Numbered from the stretch's first letter, positions 44,010 through 64,000 are shown. The stretch: 64,000 bases of DNA from Nitrospirota bacterium (GCA_013388455.1 JACAFF010000002.1:23115-87114); one strand, 5' to 3'. Made by a program: numbers and translations. The notes: generated by a model from the letters alone, not told the origin.

Positions 44010-44930
44010 ATGCATCCTGAAGCTAAAAGTCAATTCAGAAAATATCAAACGACTCCTTTGCTAAAAGGAGCAATTCGCGCATTCACTATTGTTTCAAAAA
44101 TCCTGCCTCTATGGTTCATGAAAATAACAGCCTTTTTTATAATACCGTTTTTTATTCTACTGAATCACAGAAACTTCAAATATATTATGATAAATTTCTC
44201 ATATATACGTCCGGATGCAGATTTATTAAGAAGGGCTCTATCTGCATATCGGGTATTTCTGAATTATTCATTCTATCTTATTGATCTTTTTTTTCTGAGT
44301 CATGGGGCAAAAAGGATAGAAAAGTATAATATAAAAATCTACGGAGAAGAACACCTTAATGAATTAATAAAAAAGAACATTGGTTTTATACTCCTGACAA
44401 TTCACATGGGAAACTGGGAGATAGCCAGTGCAGTCCTCTCTAAAAAAAATGTGAAGTCTTATGTTGTATATTCACCTGACAGTGAAGGAACAATCGAATA
44501 TAATCGCAGAACATTAAGGAATATTTTTAATGTGAATGACATACCTTTGAACAGAAAAACCTTCTTTTCGATACAACTCCTGAATACCTTAAGAGAAAAA
44601 GGAATAGTAGCGTTTCAGGGTGACAGGCTTATGGGAGACAGCGGTGTTGAAGTCAAATTTTTTGGTAAGAATGCTCTTTTCCCTAAAGGTCCTATTGTTC
44701 TTGGAATGGTTTCCGGGGCCCCGATTCTTCCTGTTTTCTGCACAATGAAAGGATATAACGGCTATATCCTTTCGATTGAAAAGCCATACAATATTCAATT
44801 GTATGAAACACGGGATGAGACTATCAGAAGGGCACTTGAAGATATTGTGATAATTTTTCAGAAATATGTATTACAATATGCTGAACAATGGTATACCTTC
44901 ATGCCGTTCTGGGGAAAAAATGAAACTTAA
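44010..44930 (+). CDS. LpxL/HtrB-type lysophospholipid (lipid A-type) acyltransferase
   Basis: 306 aa. N-terminal TM and acyltransferase core ILLTIHMGNWE (H-x4-E/D type). Length and profile match the lauroyl/myristoyl acyltransferase family. Confidence 0.7.
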   Translation: MHPEAKSQFRKYQTTPLLKGAIRAFTIVSKILPLWFMKITAFFIIPFFILLNHRNFKYIMINFSYIRPDADLLRRALSAYRVFLNYSFYLIDLFFLSHGAKRIEKYNIKIYGEEHLNELIKKNIGFILLTIHMGNWEIASAVLSKKNVKSYVVYSPDSEGTIEYNRRTLRNIFNVNDIPLNRKTFFSIQLLNTLREKGIVAFQGDRLMGDSGVEVKFFGKNALFPKGPIVLGMVSGAPILPVFCTMKGYNGYILSIEKPYNIQLYETRDETIRRALEDIVIIFQKYVLQYAEQWYTFMPFWGKNET

Positions 44931-46224
44931 ACTCATATATCCTGAATGGGGACATTTTCCTCTTTTATATAGAAGGTTCATTCCTGTTCTTGGACCCGCA
45001 ACAATCGCTGCACTAACTCCTGATGAGTGGGAAATAGAGTTCATTGATGAAAGAATAGAAACCCTTAATATTCAGAATGATGCTGACCTGGTAGGAATAT
45101 CTCTTATGACTTCTCAGGCATTGAGGGCATATGAGATTTCCAGTGCTTACAGGGCTCTCGGGATACCAGTTATTTTAGGTGGTGTCCATGTCTCACTTGC
45201 ACCCGAAGAGGCAACTGCTTATGCTGATGCAATTATTATTGGAGAGGCAGAAGAAGTATGGATTAAACTTCTTGATGATTTTAAAAAAAATCAATTAAAA
45301 AAAATATATAAATGCACCCGCCCTGTTCTTAACCCTCCTTTACCAAGATGGGATATAATATGCTCAGGGAAGGGATATCTGCCTATGAATGCACTCCAGA
45401 TATCAAGAGGCTGTCCCGTAAACTGTGAGATGTGTTCAGTTCCACAGAGTTTTGGCACCGACTTCAGGATGAGAGATATCAATTCTCTACATAAAGAACT
45501 TGACGCATCAGCAAAATATCTCTTTATTGTAAACGATAATCTTTACCTTTCGAAGAGGCGGTCTGGAGAATTCCTGAATTTACTTAAAGACAGCTCAAAA
45601 GAATGGGTAGGACTTGCACCATTAAAGATAGGTGAGGATAAATGGTTTTTAGAACTACTTATGAAAAGTCATTGTTGGGCTATGTATATTGATCTAAGTC
45701 CCTGGATTTCTGCTGGACTCAACGAGGTAATTGATGATGTTCAGGTTAAAAAGGCTGGAGAATATATCTCACGAATACGTGAATATAATATAAAAGTTAT
45801 AGCATCTTTTGTCTTCGGTTTTGATCATGATGAAAAAGATATTTTTGAGAAGACTGTATCATTCGCAAAAAAACATGAGATAGAAGAGGTAGAATTTCAT
45901 ATTCTTACACCTTATCCAATGAGTAGACTTTATGAAAGACTAAAATCGCAAGGGAGGTTGATAACAGATAAATTTTCAGAATATACTACTTCTCAAGTCG
46001 TCTTCAAACCTGCTAAAATGACACCTGATGAGTTATATGAAGGGTATATCTCGGCATGGAAAGAATTTTATGCAGATGAATACGAAGATTCATCCAACGG
46101 ACCGATGATTAGAACATTCCGATGTTTTCCAATGAAAAAAGATGATGTTATACAATTTAATGGAGAAAGATGGGTTGAGGCAGTATTTAAAAGGGAGAAT
46201 ACAAATAAATGTATAGAGAACTAA
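44920..46224 (+). CDS. B12-binding-domain radical SAM enzyme (class B) no.1
   Basis: Start re-set to the ATG at 44920 (MKLKLIYPEW). N-terminal cobalamin-type Rossmann domain (DLVGISLMTSQALRAYEISSAYRALGIPVILGGVH), CX3CX2C motif SRGCPVNCEMC, and C-terminal VVFKPAKMTPDEL tail as in DUF4070-type enzymes. Confidence 0.8.
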   Translation: MKLKLIYPEWGHFPLLYRRFIPVLGPATIAALTPDEWEIEFIDERIETLNIQNDADLVGISLMTSQALRAYEISSAYRALGIPVILGGVHVSLAPEEATAYADAIIIGEAEEVWIKLLDDFKKNQLKKIYKCTRPVLNPPLPRWDIICSGKGYLPMNALQISRGCPVNCEMCSVPQSFGTDFRMRDINSLHKELDASAKYLFIVNDNLYLSKRRSGEFLNLLKDSSKEWVGLAPLKIGEDKWFLELLMKSHCWAMYIDLSPWISAGLNEVIDDVQVKKAGEYISRIREYNIKVIASFVFGFDHDEKDIFEKTVSFAKKHEIEEVEFHILTPYPMSRLYERLKSQGRLITDKFSEYTTSQVVFKPAKMTPDELYEGYISAWKEFYADEYEDSSNGPMIRTFRCFPMKKDDVIQFNGERWVEAVFKRENTNKCIEN

Positions 46225-47561
46225 AGCCGATTATTCTTTCAAATTTACTTTATAGAATAGTTCAGATTCTATCTCTGAGTTCTCCTCAATTGCTTATCCA
46301 TTATACAAAGATAGCAGAACTCGCAACCACAAGAGATCATTATAAACGAGCGATCCGAAAGATTAGAGGCATGTGGGAAAATGGTCATCCAAGCCTGAGG
46401 GTTGCTATGAAAATCCTGAGGAATACATCACCGAATCACAAGAGAAAAATTATCAAAAACTTCATTATCAATCAGCTTCTGGTAGGCAGTACAAGGAGGA
46501 AGCTTTTTTCAGAGCAGGAAGGCGGATTTTATCCTCCAGGACTTATGGTAATTAGCCCCACGATGAAATGTAATTTGAATTGTTATGGTTGTTATGCAGG
46601 CATGTATCGCAAAGATGCGGATTTGCCTTTTGATGTGTTTGACAGGGTGCTTAATGAGGCCAAGGAAATGGGAATTTATTTCGCTGTTATATCCGGTGGT
46701 GAACCTTTTTTTAGAAAAGATATTTTTGATATCTTCGAAAAACATCATGATATGTCATTTCATGTATTCACAAATGGTAGTCTTCTTGATGACGAAAAGG
46801 TAAGGAAGATATCTGATCTCGGGAATATTCTACCTGCAATTAGTGTAGAGGGGTTTAAGGAAGAGACTGATACCCGTCGGGGTAAGGGTCACTACGAAAA
46901 AGTATTAAATGCAATGAGACTTTTAAAAGAAAATGGCGTGCTTTTCGGTTTTTCTGCAACAATGACAAAAGAAAATGCAAATACGATTGTTTCAGATGAA
47001 TTCATAGACCACTGGATTGGACATGGCTGCACTATCGGTTGGTATTTCCTTTATACACCGGTTGGAAGAGAACCTAACTGGCAAATTGTTCCAACGCCTG
47101 AACAGAGAGATATGCTTAGAGAACGGGTGGCTTATATTCGCTCTAATAAGGAGATATTAATCGGTGATTTCTGGAATGATGGCCCTGTTGTTGGTGGCTG
47201 CATTGCCGGAGGAAGAAAATATTTCCATATTAATTCCAAGGGTGATATAGAGCCATGTGTATTCTGCCATATCTCAATGCATAATATAAAAAACACAAGT
47301 CTCAGGGAAGCCATTACCTCCCCTTTATTCAAGAGAATCCGTGAACATCAGAAAAATAATACCAATCTTTTACGTCCATGTATGATCATGGATCATCCCT
47401 ATGTTTACAGAGAAATATGTCAGATTCCTGGAGTAAAATTTACACATAAAGGTGCCGAGCAAATCGTAACTGAATTTGCACCTGAAATAGATAAATATTC
47501 AAAAAGATGGGCTGAGCTTGCTGATAGGGCATGGAGTGAAAGACAGAATAGTAGTTGTTAG
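46209..47561 (+). CDS. radical SAM enzyme with long N-terminal helical extension and C-terminal auxiliary Cys cluster (possible Tes/GDGT-MAS-like)
   Basis: 450 aa. The CX3CX2C motif MKCNLNCYGCYA appears only at about residue 120. GGEPF SAM-binding motif. Later Cys set GGCIAGG, EPCVFCH and RPCM. Confidence 0.7.
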   Translation: MYRELKPIILSNLLYRIVQILSLSSPQLLIHYTKIAELATTRDHYKRAIRKIRGMWENGHPSLRVAMKILRNTSPNHKRKIIKNFIINQLLVGSTRRKLFSEQEGGFYPPGLMVISPTMKCNLNCYGCYAGMYRKDADLPFDVFDRVLNEAKEMGIYFAVISGGEPFFRKDIFDIFEKHHDMSFHVFTNGSLLDDEKVRKISDLGNILPAISVEGFKEETDTRRGKGHYEKVLNAMRLLKENGVLFGFSATMTKENANTIVSDEFIDHWIGHGCTIGWYFLYTPVGREPNWQIVPTPEQRDMLRERVAYIRSNKEILIGDFWNDGPVVGGCIAGGRKYFHINSKGDIEPCVFCHISMHNIKNTSLREAITSPLFKRIREHQKNNTNLLRPCMIMDHPYVYREICQIPGVKFTHKGAEQIVTEFAPEIDKYSKRWAELADRAWSERQNSSC

Positions 47562-63570: not shown

Positions 63571-63572
63571 TT

Positions 63573-64000
63573 TTAAATTTTAAAATTCTTCCATGCGCGG
63601 CTAAAGCCCCAGTTCATGGGACCAAATACCATGATACTCCGTCTGATGGAAGGTAATCTCTTAAGCATTGATCTGAATGAGTAAAATCTCTGATTTGCTT
63701 TGAGAAAATGCTCCTCGAGTTCTTCAGGCTGCATATTCTTAGGTCTGAATACAGCATGCGCCATATCATATAGTCTCCAGTCTTTTGTAATAAGCCGTCC
63801 TTCGCTTTTCATTCTCTCAAAAACCCTTGTGCCAGGATATGGTGTGAGAATAGTATAAAGGACACTGTCAAGTCTTGTCCTTTCAACAAATTCAAGAACC
63901 TGATTAAAGGTATCAGGTGTATCCCAATCATATCCAAATATGAATGAACCCTGAATCCCTATGCCAAAGTCATGAATTTTTTTTATGAATTCTGCATACT
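63573..64000 (-). CDS. radical SAM enzyme no.5 of the B12/DUF4070 type (5' part beyond the window)
   Basis: The reading frame stays open upstream of the track start (63812) to the window end: ...YAEFIKKIHDFGIGIQGSFIFGYDWDTPDTFNQVLEFVERTRLDSVLYTILTPYPGTRVFERMKSEGRL...HAVFRPKNMQPEEL. This matches the C-terminal halves of the other four enzymes. Confidence 0.7.
   Translation of the reverse strand, partial: YAEFIKKIHDFGIGIQGSFIFGYDWDTPDTFNQVLEFVERTRLDSVLYTILTPYPGTRVFERMKSEGRLITKDWRLYDMAHAVFRPKNMQPEELEEHFLKANQRFYSFRSMLKRLPSIRRSIMVFGPMNWGFSRAWKNFKI

Follow-up and report, generated by a model that had tools for sequence, protein, structure and literature searches.

A radical SAM-rich locus of a Nitrospirota bacterium as a member of the TIGR04072 family of lipid clusters, probably with aryl polyene-type anchoring and export

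Near the end of a 64,000-nt stretch of the genome of a Nitrospirota bacterium (GCA_013388455.1, JACAFF010000002.1:23115-87114; hereafter the window, over whose whole length all positions are numbered) lies a run of densely packed genes, at 44010-64000, in which radical S-adenosylmethionine (rSAM) enzymes stand among proteins of fatty acid synthesis, glycosylation and export. The question that this locus raises is whether these genes form one pathway and, if so, what kind of product it makes. The original prediction held that it may build a lipid derived from an acyl carrier protein (ACP), heavily tailored by radical chemistry, and export it to the outer membrane with a gene set resembling that of aryl polyene (APE) clusters, with no ketosynthase (KS) in view and in a composition known from no characterised cluster. 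We find that the linked locus for lipid biosynthesis and APE-like export stands, that the novelty of the composition does not, and that the missing KS probably does not. The genes present, the family to which they belong, the conservation of their synteny, their homology to ape proteins and the state of their active sites are established, and on these grounds we consider it likely that the locus is the Nitrospirota version of a widespread, uncharacterised family of lipid clusters marked by the NCBIfam model TIGR04072. It would be an evolutionary hybrid that joins an APE-type anchoring and export apparatus to chain building by a FabF-like KS and chain-length factor (CLF) and to a battery of rSAM tailoring enzymes.

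Gene calls from an open reading frame (ORF) listing, Pfam and NCBIfam bear out the predicted inventory almost item by item, together with the tight packing and frequent gene overlaps across the region (Table 1). The family is recognised by rSAM4, which passes the equivalog cutoff of TIGR04072 (383.5 bits against 360) and has 2522 homologues in the database at E<=1e-20. A dedicated ACP, a ketoreductase, a family 2 glycosyltransferase (GT2) and an RND/MMPL exporter are all present in the window, as they are in the TIGR04072 family. A scan of one genome per GTDB species returned hundreds of relatives, of which the best 80, 35-50% identical over their full length, were taken (loci are given L numbers). 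By record title, these 80 come from Nitrospirota, many Desulfobacterota, Geobacteraceae (including the cultured Oryzomonas japonica Red96, L035), Brocadiaceae, Acidobacteriota, Spirochaetota, Bacteroidota, Chitinispirillum and several Gammaproteobacteria. Representatives of six groups, among them Brocadiaceae, Geobacteraceae, Acidobacteriota, Spirochaetota and Thermodesulfobacteriota, pass the TIGR04072 cutoff themselves (374-428 bits).

Neighbours were counted by tblastn in 44 loci of at least 15 kb, using the window's proteins and a close relative's KS, CLF, LolA, activase and HGD-D as queries. The dedicated ACP recurs in 36 of the 44 loci, FabG in 33, KS in 32, CLF in 31, GT2 in 30, an rSAM6-type enzyme in 28 and the FabD-like acyltransferase in 22. 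The SPASM-domain rSAM, 23-62% identical, adjoins the TIGR04072 gene in 25; the LpxL-type acyltransferase lies inside the cluster in 19, the hot-dog protein was found in 18, the MMPL protein (within 10 kb) in 11, and activase and HGD-D in 8 each. Dozens of genomes, spread over several phyla, thus have the gene set beside a TIGR04072 homologue, with the order of the genes rearranged, and this recurrence bears out a single, functionally linked locus for lipid biosynthesis and export. Because a dedicated model, 'lipid biosynthesis B12-binding/radical SAM protein', exists for its signature enzyme, the statement that no cluster of this composition was known overstated its novelty; the cluster type itself is not newly discovered, having already been catalogued as TIGR04072 and, in the anammox bacterium Kuenenia, as Kuste3335-3352, the member known best. 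What is new is a FabD-like family that lacks Arg117, a His-less hot-dog protein in Geobacter- and Nitrospirota-type clusters, and the highest rSAM count (six). That the cluster is uncharacterised is correct: no product is known for any family member (PMC13459092, PMC9902471, PMC4790861), and in the literature on cobalamin rSAM enzymes and chain-length factors we found no characterisation of the TIGR04072 family.

Architectures differ between lineages. The Desulfobacterales type runs SPASM ... FabG-ACP-(hot-dog)-GT2-KS-CLF-TIGR04072. The Geobacter type begins deacetylase-GT2-SPASM-acyltransferase-ACP-two to three B12-rSAMs-FabD-like-4HBT thioesterase-TIGR04072 and continues FabG-KS-CLF-hot-dog-LolA-LolB-...-MMPL. 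Further architectures are a type opening with HGD-D and activase, and the Nitrospirota type of the window. In O. japonica the TIGR04072 gene is separated from FabG by inserted genes for an MFS transporter, an aldo/keto reductase and a PNPOx-like flavoprotein (L035 11388-14229), a gap whose size is unmatched at this junction in other Geobacter-type loci. Three Acidobacteriota loci (L074, L075 and L076; Thermoanaerobaculia, Holophagales) hold a pair of TIGR04072 and rSAM6-type genes with no ACP, KS or GT2 homologue within 10 kb, and the rSAM pair may serve another context there; by Pfam the neighbouring ORFs of L074 are uninformative (kinase, ThiS, DUF4097), with many spurious high-GC ORFs.

The apparent absence of a KS is probably an artefact of the window end. 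In GCA_900174595.1 (L084), L085 and L004, whose TIGR04072 proteins are 80%, 63% and 50% identical to rSAM4, the operon order is identical to that of the window's minus strand. Immediately upstream of their rSAM6 orthologue lie genes for CLF, KS, LolA, an acyl-CoA-dehydratase activase, which scores 190 bits with TIGR00241 (cutoff 125), and either one or two proteins of the HGD-D/DUF2229 type, and by this synteny the operon of the window would continue in the same way beyond 64000. The relatives' KS has its Cys-His-His triad (TACSSS, AHGTGT, GHCLGAAG) and the CLF has lost all three residues, a pairing that mirrors a heterodimer of KS/CLF type recently demonstrated for FabF homologues of anammox bacteria (bioRxiv 10.64898/2026.05.19.726425). 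The best PDB match of a relative's KS is the heterodimeric entry 9s5h, possibly the amxFabF heterodimer, and that of the ACP is 9ls6. Exact matches to three proteins of the window were found in Logan contigs of 1.5-7 kb only.

GCA_900174595.1, a 70-80% identical relative, carries the two halves of the cluster on separate contigs. Its first half (L088) reads acyltransferase-rSAM1-SPASM-LolB-like, convergent with rSAM3-...-GT2-IorBA-...-cyclase, and is followed by unrelated genes (thioredoxin-reductase-like, DUF72, RelA/SpoT); the second half (L084) reads activase-...-KS-CLF-rSAM6-...-ACP-hot-dog-MMPL. In L005 the halves are joined directly, hot-dog gene to acyltransferase gene, and in the window they meet at the cyclase/MMPL junction. 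The cluster hence consists of two separable modules, and the persistence of their co-occurrence despite rearrangement argues for a functional and against an accidental linkage.

Pfam and the ORFs confirm the four complete and one truncated B12-binding enzymes and a sixth, SPASM-type enzyme that had been predicted. Six is the highest count seen, other family loci having 1-5 within 10 kb, although such richness is not unique to the window, given that Geobacteraceae versions hold 4-5 rSAM genes. All six enzymes have a CxxxCxxC motif; for rSAM6 it was read from a 3.3-kb Logan contig (L001), which extends the protein to 342 aa, and from L084, the full-length orthologue in L084, L085 and L004 having 426 aa. 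rSAM1 (motif CPVNCEMC; 38% identical to rSAM6 and 34% to rSAM3), rSAM3 (CPYGCSFC; 41% to rSAM6) and rSAM6 are paralogues at 34-41% identity. The true starts of rSAM1 and rSAM3 are uncertain because the annotation of relatives makes these proteins shorter, at 434 aa and 404 aa. Apart from rSAM4, none of the enzymes reaches any curated NCBIfam cutoff. The scores of rSAM5 are 222 bits for BchE (cutoff 481), 195 for HpnJ (578) and 190 for HpnR (650), and the other rSAMs score lower. Matches in the PDB are remote, namely AprD4, OxsB and TsrM for the B12 enzymes (AprD4 and OxsB being the best for rSAM5, at 62-75 bits) and SkfB for the SPASM enzyme, which gives only 21.9 bits (E 5e-4) with the tetraether synthase Tes/GDGT-MAS (7tol). 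Assignment to the hopanoid, BchE or Tes families was dropped, the scores being far under the cutoffs. The enzymes are cluster-specific, with none at the cutoff of HpnP/HpnR, HpnJ or BchE. They share a class B or SPASM/auxiliary-cluster architecture with HpnP/HpnR, HpnJ, the BchE-type cyclase, Tes/GDGT-MAS and Mss (reviewed in PMC13459092), and these characterised lipid enzymes act, or presumably act, on inert lipid carbons. The substrate of nearly all the characterised examples is an isoprenoid lipid; here it is presumed to be a ketoacyl chain bound to the ACP.

Two of the chain-building proteins score above an NCBIfam cutoff, the ACP passing NF006617 (83.6 bits against a cutoff of 70) and FabG passing TIGR01830 (308 bits against 297.75; 41% identity to ApeQ and 42% to E. 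coli FabG). The hot-dog protein scores 74-77 bits with FabZ models, under cutoff, and alignment to E. coli FabZ verified that it is His-less, as predicted: five residues (GHFPG) are deleted, and with them the catalytic His of the GHFP motif, but the Glu is retained. Geobacter-type homologues show this deletion too, the form being common to the Nitrospirota-type and Geobacter-type clusters, and the anammox homologue has a Tyr at the His position. ApeP likewise lacks the GHF motif and retains the Glu; ApeI has the motif. The FabD-like protein (164 bits with the fabD model, cutoff 261) keeps Ser92 and His201, and its malonyl-carboxylate-binding Arg117 is replaced by Ala. The replacement, by A, I, V, L or F, is seen in 38 of 38 cluster homologues (L004-L086), all with Ser92 and His201 kept; the FabD reference sequence was checked against its record. 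We take this as a family-wide signature pointing to a non-malonyl substrate, and because Arg117 is lost in all cluster homologues, the protein probably loads the starter unit. No enoyl reductase was recognised in the cluster. The nature of the starter is hinted at by three sets of enzymes. The IorAB-type family turns arylpyruvates and other 2-oxoacids into acyl-CoA (IorA scores 573 bits with TIGR03336, cutoff 651; IorB scores 92.6 bits with the NCBIfam IOR beta model, under cutoff, and keeps its synteny in L005 and L088). The activase and HGD-D proteins are similar to 2-hydroxyacyl-CoA dehydratases, and the PaaK-like ligase of the anammox version is annotated as phenylacetyl-CoA ligase (PMC4790861). 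Together they hint at an unusual, possibly aryl-containing starter.

For anchoring and export, the reference was the ape cluster of E. coli CFT073 (L090), compared by BLASTP and tblastn, with APE gene roles and lipid structure taken from PMC8253772 and bioRxiv 10.1101/2020.12.19.423268. This direct comparison upheld the predicted APE-like attachment and export set. The ACP is 49% identical to ApeE (75.9 bits, against 43.9 bits for E. coli AcpP), the hot-dog protein 26% to ApeP (E 6e-7; E. coli FabZ, PDB 6n3p, 46.5 bits by phmmer), the MMPL protein 21% to ApeM (48.5 bits) and GT2 26% to ApeJ over residues 9-231 (82 bits). The acyltransferase aligns with residues 316-549 of ApeJ at 47 bits, compared with 35 bits for E. 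coli LpxL. ApeJ (558 aa, L090 41212-42888) is a fusion of a GT2 with an LpxL-type-related acyltransferase, of which Pfam sees the GT2 half only. In the window the two genes lie 6 kb apart on opposite strands, and their fusion in ApeJ is strong evidence that they act together in anchoring. The acyltransferase belongs to PF03279 (79 bits) and is under every NCBIfam LpxL cutoff; a housekeeping LpxL identity was dropped, given that the gene travels with the cluster and its ApeJ match is the better one. GT2 belongs to PF00535 (82 bits) and scores 112 bits with AglJ and 97 bits with PpgS, both under cutoff, and the MMPL protein reaches 167-171 bits with the HpnN and HAE3 models, also under cutoff. 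The predicted LolA/B-like lipoprotein has no Pfam match and only 3 sequence homologues were found. An AlphaFold2 model of its 266 aa, made from the 3-sequence alignment, was unusable (mean predicted local distance difference test score, pLDDT, 40.8), and profile-profile comparison was used instead. It aligns to the in-cluster LolB-like family of Geobacteraceae (hhalign probability 96.5%, E 9e-10, 211 columns), whose protein matches Pfam LolB. APE and window-type clusters have in common a type II KS/CLF, ACP, ketoreductase (KR) and hot-dog protein without enoyl reductase, and an RND pump with LolA-like and LolB-like carriers (KS/CLF and LolA by synteny in the case of the window); the ape cluster of E. 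coli CFT073 contains no homologue of the window's six rSAM genes.

The remaining exported and accessory proteins are less widely shared. The lipoprotein encoded at 49574-50338 has no Pfam or NCBIfam match and keeps its position in close relatives. The 142-aa secreted protein (50298-50726) and the 208-aa lipoprotein (53758-54384) have a domain of ~90 aa in common (29% identity, E 6e-8) that matches nothing in Pfam or NCBIfam, and both proteins are conserved in Nitrospirota cluster versions only; homologues of the former were found in L005 and of the latter in L005 and L088. The DUF2062 gene is syntenic in L004, L084 and L085. The HAMP-cyclase, conserved only in the close relative L088 and without homologue in the 80 scanned loci, is possibly a local regulator, and its membership in the cluster is uncertain.

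Comparison with anammox bacteria places the locus beside a cluster that has been linked to ladderanes. The Kuste3335-3352 cluster of Kuenenia was described in silico in 2009 and is syntenic with one of Desulfotalea psychrophila (Rattray 2009, PMC2649909). A Brocadiaceae locus among our relatives (L057) has the order deacetylase-KS-CLF-methyltransferase-KS-PaaK-like ligase-SPASM rSAM-TIGR04072 rSAM-ACP-hot-dog-methyltransferase-MMPL-amine oxidase-GT2, with the SPASM rSAM gene directly upstream of the TIGR04072 gene, and this gene list is that of Kuste3335-3352 (PMC4790861, PMC2649909). The window shares with it the TIGR04072 rSAM (Kuste3342-type), the SPASM rSAM (Kuste3343-type), ACP, FabG, GT2 and MMPL, and also a hot-dog protein without catalytic His and a KS with a non-canonical KS (the window's by synteny). 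Four extra B12-rSAM paralogues, the FabD-like and LpxL-type acyltransferases, IorAB, DUF2062 and the LolB-like lipoprotein are found in the window and not in Kuste3335-3352, whereas SAM methyltransferases, a phytoene-desaturase-like oxidase, a phenylacetyl-CoA-ligase-like enzyme and a DUF3473 deacetylase are found in Kuste3335-3352 and not in the window. A second anammox cluster, Cluster I (KustE3603-3608: amxACP, amxFabZ, amxFabF2/amxFabFmut, PDH, B12-rSAM), has been reported only in anammox bacteria (PMC10139942). Common to it and to the window type are a dedicated ACP, a FabF-like KS with a triad-less CLF-like partner, and a cobalamin rSAM, but its phytoene-desaturase-like enzyme and its FabZ with active His are not seen in the window. 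An anammox amine-oxidase-like protein, taken from a Kuste3335-3352-type locus and not from Cluster I, has no match in the window. Clusters called 'ladderane' by antiSMASH, of unknown function, are on record for Desulfobacterota, Omnitrophota, Myxococcota and other groups (PMC9902471); these non-anammox calls may be the TIGR04072 cluster family. A metagenome-assembled genome (MAG) labelled Deltaproteobacteria (L063) has the anammox-type arrangement KS-CLF-Kuste3347-like methyltransferase-KS-PaaK-like ligase, otherwise seen in Brocadiaceae only, which may reflect horizontal transfer or mis-binning.

A route that would fit these genes can be outlined. IorAB would make an acyl-CoA starter, possibly arylacetyl-CoA from an arylpyruvate, to which the upstream activase/HGD-D-like system may contribute, and the Arg117-less FabD-like acyltransferase would load it on the ApeE-type ACP. 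The KS/CLF heterodimer would extend the chain with malonyl units, with FabG reducing each and the His-less hot-dog protein sharing in dehydration with a partner. The TIGR04072 and SPASM rSAM pair and the four B12-rSAM paralogues would then modify the ACP-bound chain, with C-methylation or C-C bond formation as possible reactions. GT2 would make a lipid-phospho-sugar to which the LpxL/PatA-type acyltransferase would esterify the chain; the MMPL pump would export the resulting glycolipid, and the LolA-like and LolB-like proteins would carry it to the outer membrane. Such an acyl-sugar-phospholipid has a precedent in the Xenorhabdus APE lipid, in which an APE acyl chain is esterified to N-acetylgalactosamine (GalNAc)-phosphate-diacylglycerol (bioRxiv 10.1101/2020.12.19.423268). 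Tentatively, and with less confidence than the family assignment, we propose that the six rSAMs might place several C-methyl groups or carbocycles on an ACP-tethered chain with an unusual starter and no enoyl reductase, giving a new class of outer-membrane glycolipid in anaerobes.

Other explanations account for parts of the locus. The LpxL-family acyltransferase adjoins lpxK, an adjacency kept in L089, so that the genes might supply a special secondary acyl chain for lipid A. The rhizobial AcpXL/LpxXL system combines a dedicated ACP, a hot-dog protein, two ketosynthases and an LpxL-type acyltransferase, and the dedicated ACP, hot-dog protein and KS-pair logic here would be analogous. However, the acyltransferase scores better with the C-terminal domain of ApeJ than with E. 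coli LpxL and is under all LpxL cutoffs, in other phyla it accompanies the cluster and not lpx genes, and GT2, MMPL and LolA/LolB-like proteins lie outside lipid A export, all of which makes a lipid A function improbable. Still less likely is a chance juxtaposition of a lipid A acyltransferase, catabolic IorAB, a signalling cyclase and rSAMs that mature peptides or cofactors. It would fit the restriction of IorAB, cyclase and exported proteins to close relatives, and SPASM rSAMs are frequently peptide maturases, but the core genes co-occur across phyla in rearranged orders, GT2 and acyltransferase are fused in ApeJ, and L005 preserves the IorA-IorB-GT2-secreted protein-rSAM3 module with protein identities of just 39-61%. 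In addition, the abutting or overlapping plus-strand genes leave no room for a precursor-peptide gene.

An ordinary APE pigment cluster with extra tailoring genes would explain the ApeE-like ACP, the ApeQ- and ApeP-like proteins, the split ApeJ, the ApeM-like pump, the LolA/LolB-like proteins and the lack of a visible enoyl reductase, and IorAB could supply its aryl starter. The APE core set of Grammbitter et al. comprises KS (ApeO/R), CLF (ApeC), ACPs (ApeE/F), ApeI with ApeP, KR (ApeQ) and transporter (ApeM). The ApeE-, ApeQ-, ApeP- and ApeM-like members are present here, but there is no ApeI-like protein, second ACP or ApeC match. By tblastn the window has no homologue of ApeH (the aryl-acid ligase), ApeB (the head-group methyltransferase), ApeI, ApeG, ApeN (DUF3261), ApeK or ApeR, and ApeJ is represented by two genes. 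The KS of L084 scores 245 bits with E. coli FabF and only 192 bits with ApeO, its CLF is likewise nearer to FabF and has no BLASTP match to ApeC, and the six rSAM genes are foreign to the ape cluster. We therefore regard a pigment cluster as unlikely. Genuine ladderanes, that is, concatenated cyclobutane lipids made by a non-anammox producer, are suggested by the NCBIfam name of the signature enzyme (rSAM_ladder_B12) and by homology to the anammox cluster that has been proposed for ladderane synthesis (PMC2649909). Ladderanes have, however, been found in anammox bacteria only, and Desulfotalea psychrophila carries a homologous cluster and makes none (PMC2649909). The anammox-only Cluster I (PMC10139942) has no counterpart here, no desaturase-like match was found in the window, the hot-dog protein lacks its His and the cluster family occurs in many non-anammox phylum-level groups. 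Ladderane synthesis is thus the most improbable of the explanations.

Several observations also weigh against a TIGR04072-family lipid cluster with APE-type export, FabF-like KS/CLF and rSAM tailoring. The KS/CLF, LolA and activase genes lie outside the window and are predicted for this organism from the synteny that it shares with its relatives; the KS is, as noted, nearer to FabF than to its APE counterpart. No His-donating ApeI-like dehydratase partner that would explain the dehydration step was found in the window (tblastn). The window has neither the 4HBT thioesterase (48 loci elsewhere in the family; 31-35% identical to ApeK) nor the DUF3473 deacetylase (34 loci). Conservation of IorAB, of the cyclase and of three exported proteins is limited to Nitrospirota relatives, with the exception of an IorA-like match in L068, and the aryl starter is read from enzyme families only. 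No new fatty acid appeared when the Kuenenia genes were expressed in E. coli, and both rSAM proteins went undetected (Javidpour 2016, PMC4790861), and no family member has a known product.

The significance of the family lies in its distribution, with two to six rSAMs beside a dedicated ACP and KS/CLF in many anaerobes, including cultured Geobacteraceae and anammox bacteria. Identification of a product would reveal a further class of outer-membrane lipid in Nitrospirota, Desulfobacterota and Geobacteraceae, which are anaerobes of environmental importance, would give a function to a large orphan rSAM family (>2500 homologues, E<=1e-20) and would test any tie of the anammox copies to ladderanes. 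Anammox bacteria are without a genetic system (PMC10139942). The TIGR04072 and SPASM pair is common to them and to cultured Geobacteraceae, and solving the product in a culturable carrier would therefore reveal the role of Kuste3342/3343 and inform the ladderane problem. If tailoring by six rSAMs is true, the product would be the first ketoacyl lipid beyond ladderanes and jawsamycin-type products shown to be shaped by rSAM chemistry. The Nitrospirota variant is of comparative value because it combines the largest number of rSAM genes seen with a putative module for starter supply (IorAB, activase/HGD-D) and a division into two separable sub-clusters.

Table 1 Genes of the radical SAM-rich locus, numbered over the whole window.
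Product	Position	Strand	Basis
LpxL/PatA-type acyltransferase (PF03279), counterpart of ApeJ C-terminal half	44010-44930	+	Pfam, BLASTP
rSAM1, B12-binding radical SAM	44866-46224 (likely start 44920)	+	B12-binding, DUF4070, weak Radical_SAM match
rSAM2, radical SAM with SPASM domain, Kuste3343-type	46209-47561	+	Radical_SAM + SPASM
LolB-like outer-membrane lipoprotein (lipobox ISGC), analogous to ApeN	47536-48336	+	hhalign
rSAM3, B12-binding radical SAM	48285-49577	-	B12-binding + Radical_SAM
Predicted lipoprotein, family unrecognised	49574-50338	-	Signal peptide + Cys read from sequence
Secreted 142-aa protein	50298-50726	-	Signal peptide
GT2 glycosyltransferase, polyprenyl-phosphate-sugar-synthase type, counterpart of ApeJ N-terminal half	50836-51522	-	PF00535
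IorB-like (indolepyruvate:ferredoxin oxidoreductase beta)	51537-52091	-	PF01558
IorA-like (indolepyruvate:ferredoxin oxidoreductase alpha)	52003-53730	-	POR_N, TPP_enzyme_C, Fer4
208-aa lipoprotein with Pro/Lys-rich linker and C-terminal domain paralogous to the 50298-50726 protein	53758-54384	-	
Membrane HAMP-domain adenylate/guanylate cyclase	54347-55726	-	HAMP + Guanylate_cyc
MMPL/HpnN-like RND lipid exporter, ApeM counterpart	55921-58260	-	PF03176
FabZ-derived hot-dog protein without catalytic His	58253-58639	-	FabZ models, alignment
Dedicated ACP, ApeE type	58649-58909	-	NF006617; DSI serine motif
FabG/ApeQ-like 3-oxoacyl-ACP reductase	58909-59655	-	TIGR01830
FabD-like acyltransferase, 277 aa	59645-60478	-	fabD model, active-site alignment
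rSAM4, B12-binding radical SAM, TIGR04072 (rSAM_ladder_B12), Kuste3342 counterpart	60454-61806	-	NCBIfam
rSAM5, B12-binding radical SAM	61803-63149	-	NCBIfam, PDB matches
DUF2062 small membrane protein	63151-63570	-	PF09835
rSAM6, B12-binding radical SAM, C-terminal 142 codons, cut by window end	63573-64000	-	Translation

The minus-strand operon runs from beyond the window end down to 48285, where the LolB-like lipoprotein and rSAM3 genes are convergent and overlap by 52 nt at their 3' ends (48285-48336), as also annotated in the relatives L088 and L089. No riboswitch or other RNA family was found in 42000-64000 by Rfam scan. The cluster had been described as downstream of lpxK, but lpxK (42740-43780) is on the opposite strand, and the two adjoin divergently. 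The left border is placed at ~44010 because the 18 kb to the left of lpxK code for minor pilins of a type IV pilus and for two giant proteins resembling PilY1. These giants, of 1594 aa (25928-30712) and 1727 aa (35846-41029), flank three genes with pilin N-terminal methylation motifs (33616-35796), and 25928-41029 has the look of a locus for the minor pilins and tip adhesin of a type IV pilus in which the adhesin is duplicated; the giant of 1727 aa is also syntenic in L089. Between both PilY1-like genes lies an IS200-like Y1 transposase ORF of 216 aa (31955-32605), adjoined by a gene for an Ig/cadherin-domain protein (31021-31752).

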